From Octopus sinensis (Eukaryota): a DNA stretch of 64,000 nucleotides. Below, piece by piece: positions 15,107-15,796 of this stretch (position 1 is the stretch's first letter; each line of letters starts with the position of its first letter). The notes beneath the pieces are model-generated. The model was not told the origin of the DNA. It ran no database searches and saw nothing but the letters and a program-made list of their open reading frames with translations. The translations under genes and the position numbers were made by a program. The stretch spans positions 129,890,001 to 129,954,000 of the forward strand of contig NC_042997.1 in NCBI RefSeq assembly GCF_006345805.1, given 5' to 3'.

Positions 15107-15172
<66 letters not shown>

Positions 15173-15299
15173 TTCAGCAAAAATTTAGATTCAAATGAAT
15201 ATGGTACTTAATTTAGATGCACCAGAATTTTGTATGGTTTATCCATAAAAAATCCGTGGGGTGATTATAATCAAAATAAGCAACAAGAATGACTCCGGT

Positions 15300-15390
15300 A
15301 ATTTGGTATGATCGTTTCGTACTACATCATTTTATTAAATGTTGTAAATATTACAACAGATTTAAGATGCTGAGTACTCATCAGCCAATT
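15300..15390 (-). ncRNA. Type I hammerhead ribozyme motif (left arm of palindrome)
   Basis: Minus strand aattgg-CTGATGA-gtac...gtac-GAAA-cgatca-TA-ccaaatt. Confidence 0.7.
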
Positions 15391-15673
15391 ATAGAGGTTT
15401 TCCATTGATACAAATATTTTCAAATCAAGTGGCAACATTATAGAGAAGGGTGATATATAGACAAAGATGTGGATTTAAATTTTAAGAACATATGAGGTTG
15501 TGGAGTCCTTCCACTGACTGACTAAGAACAACCAAATCTTAGTCAGTCAGTGGAAGGACTCCACAACCTCATATGTTCTTAAAATTTAAATCCACATCTT
15601 TGTCTATATATCTACCTTCTCTATAATGTTGCCACTTGATTTGAAAATATTTGTATCAATGGAAAACCTCTAT

Positions 15674-15763
15674 AATTGGCTGATGAGTACTCAGCATCTT
15701 AAATCTGTTGTAATATTTACAACATTTATAAAATGATGTAGTACGAAATGATCATACCAAATT
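15674..15763 (+). ncRNA. Type I hammerhead ribozyme motif (right arm of palindrome)
   Basis: aattgg-CTGATGA-gtac-[insert with hairpin TGTTGTAA/TTACAACA]-gtac-GAAA-TGATCA-TA-ccaaatt; palindromic stem III, AUA triplet at 15754-15756. Confidence 0.8.
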
Positions 15764-15790
15764 ACCGGAGTCATTCTTGTTGCTTATTTG

Positions 15791-15796
<6 letters not shown>

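Follow-up and report, generated by a model that had tools for sequence, protein, structure and literature searches.

Layout of the hammerhead palindrome

A palindrome carrying one hammerhead ribozyme motif in each arm was located near 15 kb in the window, which is the entire 64-kb stretch of Octopus sinensis DNA analyzed here. Its features are as follows.

15114-15170, no strand: left (TA)n target microsatellite, from the listing of TA runs
15171-15265, minus strand: 95-nt tail, a 3' extension of the left copy only; family sequence with a recurrent terminus
15266-15527, minus strand: left copy, 5'-truncated and tail-bearing, 262 nt, from the arm alignment
15307-15391, minus strand: left type I hammerhead motif (core 15384-15378, GAAA 15318-15315, stem III ACGAUCAU, mismatched)
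15526-15527: 2-nt overlap GA common to both copies at the junction, from family loose ends compared with the window letters
15528-15536, plus strand: 9-nt loop, upstream sequence of the family in sense orientation, belonging to the right, tail-less copy
15537-15796, plus strand: right copy, tail-less, 260 nt; its final 4 letters merge with the TA run
15673-15764, plus strand: right type I hammerhead motif (core 15680-15686, GAAA 15745-15748, stem III AUGAUCAU)
15793-15827, no strand: right (TA)n target microsatellite, from the listing of TA runs

The original prediction, made from the letters of the window, described arms of ~260 bp, a 9-nt loop, a left tail of ~95 bp and (TA)n on both sides, and this layout was confirmed. 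On the right, mixed TA/CA repeats extend the (TA)n run to about 16175. Aligning the arms to each other revealed four differences: two indels of 1 nt (15273 and 15335), one substitution (15314/15749) and one dinucleotide change (15450-51/15613-14).

The motif scan and folding agreed with the prediction of one outward-pointing hammerhead per arm. Each motif has the core CUGAUGA, a 5-bp stem II base enclosing an insert, GAAA and an 8-nt stem III. The insert, predicted at ~50 nt, measured 48/49 nt across the arms, with 48 nt in the right hammerhead. Cutting is predicted at AUA, after 15756 on the right and after 15307 on the left. The scan returned five matches in the window, four of which are the arms of this palindrome and of a second one at 50.2 kb; a match at 41900 is probably spurious. 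Forty resampled windows gave a mean of 0.1 matches (maximum 1), or 0.025 with stem II of at least 4 bp, under rules chosen after the 15-kb locus had been seen. Two further hammerheads, at 49.9 kb and 6.8 kb, were overlooked by the scan. Compared with 200 shuffles, the fold of the right motif had a z of -2.3 and that of the left a z of -2.7, and the unconstrained fold pairs part of the hammerhead core.

Rfam gave no match in the whole window at the gathering score. At E ≤ 10 there was no hammerhead at the palindrome, only sub-threshold matches of the miRNA or chance type; these are chance matches attributable to the TA runs and to the perfect hairpin, and a reading as an miRNA precursor was rejected for this reason. 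Since Rfam has no hammerhead here, the ribozyme call is based on motif and fold. Rfam misses hammerheads whose stem II is long. Scans of metagenomes for hammerhead motifs gave 0 matches. When the whole element was folded, the sense core was predicted to be fully paired in read-through RNA from either strand. As the two ribozymes also lie on opposite strands, they would probably be inert after insertion.

A repeat family and the alleles shared by the arms

The left arm, tail and loop were compared with public sequencing runs. The left arm and tail were partly present in 20 of the 24 listed runs, from 9 studies and 3 organisms. Aligning four of these runs to it gave 3167 contigs in run X1, 2030 in X5, 2785 in X6 and 110 in a fourth run (X7, presumably of RNA), with many variants. 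X1, X5 and X6 come from three separate studies and three organisms; even without X1, which is possibly the source sample, the family stands on X5 and X6. Judging from these contigs, the copies in the palindrome belong to a many-copy repeat, for which depth is not a copy number. The stem II insert is covered throughout in the family contigs, by which measure it is a family trait.

The tail had been taken for unique sequence. This did not hold, since the same tail is well covered in all four runs as part of the many-copy family. Thirty X1 contigs pass from the tail end at 15171 directly into (TA)n. Position 15266 mirrors the tail-less end, and 4 of the 32 listed pieces have it as their first position, which lends modest support to it as a recurrent tail-less terminus. 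Family depth drops about tenfold or more across the last 20-30 nt before the loop. A native 5-bp hairpin lies inside the arm at 15500-15514, near this drop, and is a candidate for a preferred fold-back site elsewhere.

Past 15527, 11 contigs (X1), 7 (X5) and 10 (X6) continue, matching the loop plus 2 letters. Once reverse-complemented, the loose-end letters in X5 give the loop exactly; those in X1 and X6 differ from it at 2 and 1 of the 9 positions, respectively. Read in the sense direction of the right arm, the loop is therefore ordinary family sequence from upstream, and the copies share an overlap of 2 nt. No contig of the four runs covers 15535-15545. Seven of the 10 listed joints switch strand at other position pairs (7 pairs, one contig each), which hints at inversion points that differ from copy to copy, although single contigs are weak support.

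Stem III of the family is ACGAUCGU, with a GUA site, and 15309 is C in 98.6-99.0% of depth in three DNA-type runs. Among the variants listed, both arms have the rare letter at 15309, 15348, 15407 and 15415, while the 15450-51 variant is private to the left arm. The arms do differ in stem III, as predicted. It had also been claimed that only the right arm keeps the palindrome; instead, both arms share one change from ACGAUCGU, and a second CpG-type change, at 15749, restored a palindromic stem III in the right arm. The predicted stem III duplex energies are -10.0 kcal/mol for the family, -7.2 for the right arm and -4.8 for the left. Selection for the restored stem was considered and rejected as unneeded, because single CpG-type changes at the neighboring stem III sites 15310 and 15313 already make up 6-10% of depth in three DNA-type runs. 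Rare alleles common to both arms suggest either that the two derive from a single donor copy or that one arm later converted the other.

Penelope-like signature and other elements of the window

Most likely, the palindrome consists of two head-to-head copies of the 3' repeat of an element, and a dimer-type hammerhead is predicted in each. We infer with good confidence that it is a dead, 5'-truncated insertion of a Penelope-like element (PLE) in a (TA)n run. Arm alignment and family contigs identify an inverted 5'-truncated copy joined head to head, a family tail of 95 nt is present on one side only, and the motif and a constrained fold indicate that the terminal repeat contains a type I hammerhead whose stem III is palindromic. 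The target is AT-rich, in the form of (TA)n, as for PLEs; a target-site duplication is not discernible. An inverted 5'-truncated copy and a tail on one side, together with a (TA)n target and a hammerhead whose stem III is palindromic, make up the published PLE signature. The original suggestion of an integration mechanism shared across families is thus very likely right, and it is already the published PLE pattern.

The closest layouts come from Pen2a_Av of Adineta vaga and Penelope-13_HM of Hydra. In the account of the former, inverted pLTRs carry the tail on one copy and have palindromes at the head-to-head junction (PMC3846280). The latter comes from a study reporting the same inverted-pLTR layout with a 30-40-nt tail and (TA)n targets; according to that article and its supplement, Penelope-13_HM has a 5' copy in inverted orientation and one hammerhead per strand (PMC8557442). 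As described there, both elements share with ours the head-to-head inverted 5'-truncated copy, the one-sided tail, a short overlap or palindrome at the junction and pLTR-sized arms (theirs about 180-220 bp), and Penelope-13_HM also shares the (TA)n target and the hammerhead on each strand. Unlike them, our insertion has no ORF, being a pLTR-only pair, its tail is 95 nt rather than 30-40 nt, and its stem II has the 48-49-nt insert.

The motifs themselves resemble the minimal dimer-type PLE hammerheads reported in 2014, which include opposite-strand pairs 100-700 bp apart (PMC4209133). The likeness to that description extends to type I, the CUGAUGA/GAAA core, the G10.1-C11.1 pair, the palindromic stem III and opposite-strand pairing within 100-700 bp. 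The distance from core to GAAA differs, at 58-59 nt here compared with a helix II of 4-8 bp there, and ours are missed by Rfam. Poseidon PAc of Anolis (PMC11167929) is likewise reported to have two termini bounding its tail and an AT-rich target. Hammerhead integrity is apparently dispensable for insertion there as here; our tail is longer. Non-LTR retrozymes, as far as described, are short repeats of animals that encode no protein, contain type I hammerheads and are related to the repeats of PLEs, and in these respects ours is similar. They are defined as tandem arrays (PMC7229834; bioRxiv 10.64898/2026.07.22.740005), head to tail, whereas ours is an inverted pair and the motif scan found no second copy or tandem array of the repeat in the window; membership was rejected on these grounds.

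Direct traces of a PLE protein were sought as well. Pfam searches of the 100 longest of 261 filtered window frames gave no match to a GIY-YIG family. The matches in these frames were to RVT_1, zf-RVT and rve, plus four weak unrelated ones, and the RT-type matches look like LINE fragments. A 23-aa residual frame at the start of the arm, ending near the loop, may resemble a GIY-YIG C-terminus. The frame running through the center of the 50.2-kb palindrome ends in a short P-x-L-N-type motif, presumably like that of GIY-YIG C-termini. A 70-aa frame in the tail of the same element gave two phmmer matches, both to repetitive proteins, which were rejected. Among the cephalopod consensus sequences published for the PLE clades Naiad and Hydra (PMC8557442), the 3' ends of Naiad_Obim, Naiad_Ovul and Hydra-1_Obim gave no match by eye or by short motif, a comparison in which line breaks may hide motifs. 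No published account of the repeat family or of PLE twin priming was found in the literature covered, with subscription journals and Repbase outside that coverage.

Three other hammerhead elements and several retroelement remnants lie in the window.

1258-1662, 26464-27548 and 37222-37776, plus strand: LINE-type RT remnants (zf-RVT weak; the others from a look at the translation)
6821-7036: TA-flanked 6.8-kb element with a type I hammerhead motif (core on the plus strand at 6877, GUU site)
34191-35123, minus strand: LINE-type RT remnant (RVT_1, E 3.6e-29)
49919-50071: TA-flanked 49.9-kb element with a single hammerhead (core on the plus strand at 49934, GUA site)
50097-50772: 50.2-kb palindrome with 265-nt arms, no spacer and a 145-nt tail
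56539-57558, minus strand: LTR-retrotransposon integrase remnant (rve, E 1.7e-07)

The 50.2-kb palindrome has stem III ACACGUGU in both arms and 55 nt between core and GAAA. Adjoining it is the 49.9-kb element, whose first stem II pair is mismatched and whose 3' part resembles, by eye, the ends of Hydra-clade PLEs (Hydra-2_Amil). At its left end, the 6.8-kb element has a 34-nt inverted copy of 6936-6969 (32/34 identical); it has a 67-nt tail and no Rfam match at E ≤ 10. The remainder of the window consists of microsatellites and LINE- and LTR-type fragments, and its interspersed repeats may be of cephalopod type. Degraded inverted repeats at 24529-24770, 16182-16323 and 29192-29259 (77-85% identity, no match in the hammerhead scan) are possibly old MITEs.

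The two palindromes are unrelated in sequence, as had been stated (score 18 compared with a shuffle mean of 20.8), and the four hammerhead elements are mutually unrelated, with 6/6 pairs within the shuffle range. The near-match in size between the palindromes, at 260 and 265 nt, was confirmed, but a fixed length was not: arm length varies, with inverted copies of 0, 34, 260 and 265 nt in the four elements, and the agreement of 260 with 265 reflects at most a similar repeat length. All six ends of three elements adjoin TA runs, compared with 0.8% of window positions near a run edge, in a count that excludes the 6.8-kb element (found by listing TA-flanked stretches) and in which two ends share one run.

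Origin of the inversion

Biochemical work on PLE insertion offers a possible route. A PLE protein studied in vitro cleaves AT-rich DNA on both strands and extends each of them, and reverse transcription is reported to start at two sites that bound the tail; the protein is predicted to be a dimer, and insertion proceeds without hammerhead activity (PMC11167929). At our locus, the GIY-YIG/RT protein of the element would have cut both strands of the TA run. One cDNA would have been started at the outer site, the tail end at 15171, and one at the inner site, the tail-less end at 15796, both copied from a single donor copy. Both may have come to a halt after about 270-360 nt, paired with each other through the 2-nt overlap and then been filled in. 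The ribozymes would be passengers, lying on opposite strands, and in read-through RNA a 260-bp hairpin is predicted to sequester the sense core. This twin-priming route, in which two cDNAs are joined by the overlap, would explain without further steps why the loop belongs to the tail-less copy at this locus and the spacer to the tail-bearing copy in the 6.8-kb element. We tentatively assign it a chance just short of even for this insertion.

The origin of inverted PLE structures has been named an open question (PMC8557442), and self-priming on an antisense template has been proposed (PMC3846280). A fold-back, in which one antisense strand folds on a 3-bp stem and one end is trimmed later, is a serious contender that we also place below even chances, with a probability of some two in five. 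Had the tail-bearing cDNA been the one to fold, the loop at this locus would run in the opposite direction, which excludes that cDNA. The strand that folded would thus have to be the antisense of the right copy, which later lost its 95-nt tail by trimming.

Two unrelated palindromes of near-equal size within 64 kb could also mean that a non-autonomous hairpin family, MITE-like or retrozyme-like, moves as a whole palindrome with the ribozymes defining the RNA ends. The depth drop before the loop is a weak hint that many copies start in this region, and edge effects or divergence may be its cause instead. We consider this improbable: contigs run past 15527 into upstream element sequence and switch strand at other places, and the inverted repeat stops 95 nt short of the left terminus. 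Furthermore, the ribozymes are on opposite strands, so no single RNA has both in sense, folding of the whole element leaves no base of the sense core unpaired, and there is no tandem array. A MITE or foldback DNA transposon was rejected on similar grounds, as the left terminus lies 95 nt outside the repeat and contigs continue or switch strand elsewhere.

Alternatively, a single PLE remnant may have been duplicated later at the DNA level, by fold-back repair or a replication template switch, and perhaps homogenized. The 2-3-bp junction stem and the four rare alleles common to the arms would fit such an event, but the duplication would have included no host flank, omitted the tail and ended where other family pieces start, with identical asymmetry in two unrelated families of the window, which makes it very improbable. 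Long palindromes are prone to assembly and library fold-back artefacts, and sequencing errors could account for the 1-nt indels, which make up 2 of the 4 arm differences, but an artefact is the least probable reading of all, given that the outer boundaries on either side coincide with element termini and TA runs, the loop is genuine sequence from upstream in the family, a CpG-type transition separates the arms and the geometry is repeated in unrelated families.

The palindrome itself is ordinary decayed retroelement DNA, and its value is as material for junction analysis. The element class, the inverted layout and opposite-strand hammerhead pairs are already known in other animals. Of interest beyond the known class are the long tails, the long stem II hammerheads missed by Rfam and the comparison of junction polarity. 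With three inversions in 64 kb, the genome offers many junctions to separate twin priming from fold-back, and the informative features are loop polarity, microhomology and terminus use. A wider proposal, which we hold to be possible but rather doubtful, is that PLE inversions generally arise by twin priming and that this host has abundant PLE families with 67-145-nt tails and a long stem II. If true, the opposite polarity of loop and spacer at the 15-kb and 6.8-kb elements would be a footprint of twin priming, and current models would miss the long-stem-II hammerheads of this host. Because such hammerheads escape Rfam, PLE ribozyme counts in genomes of this kind may be too low.
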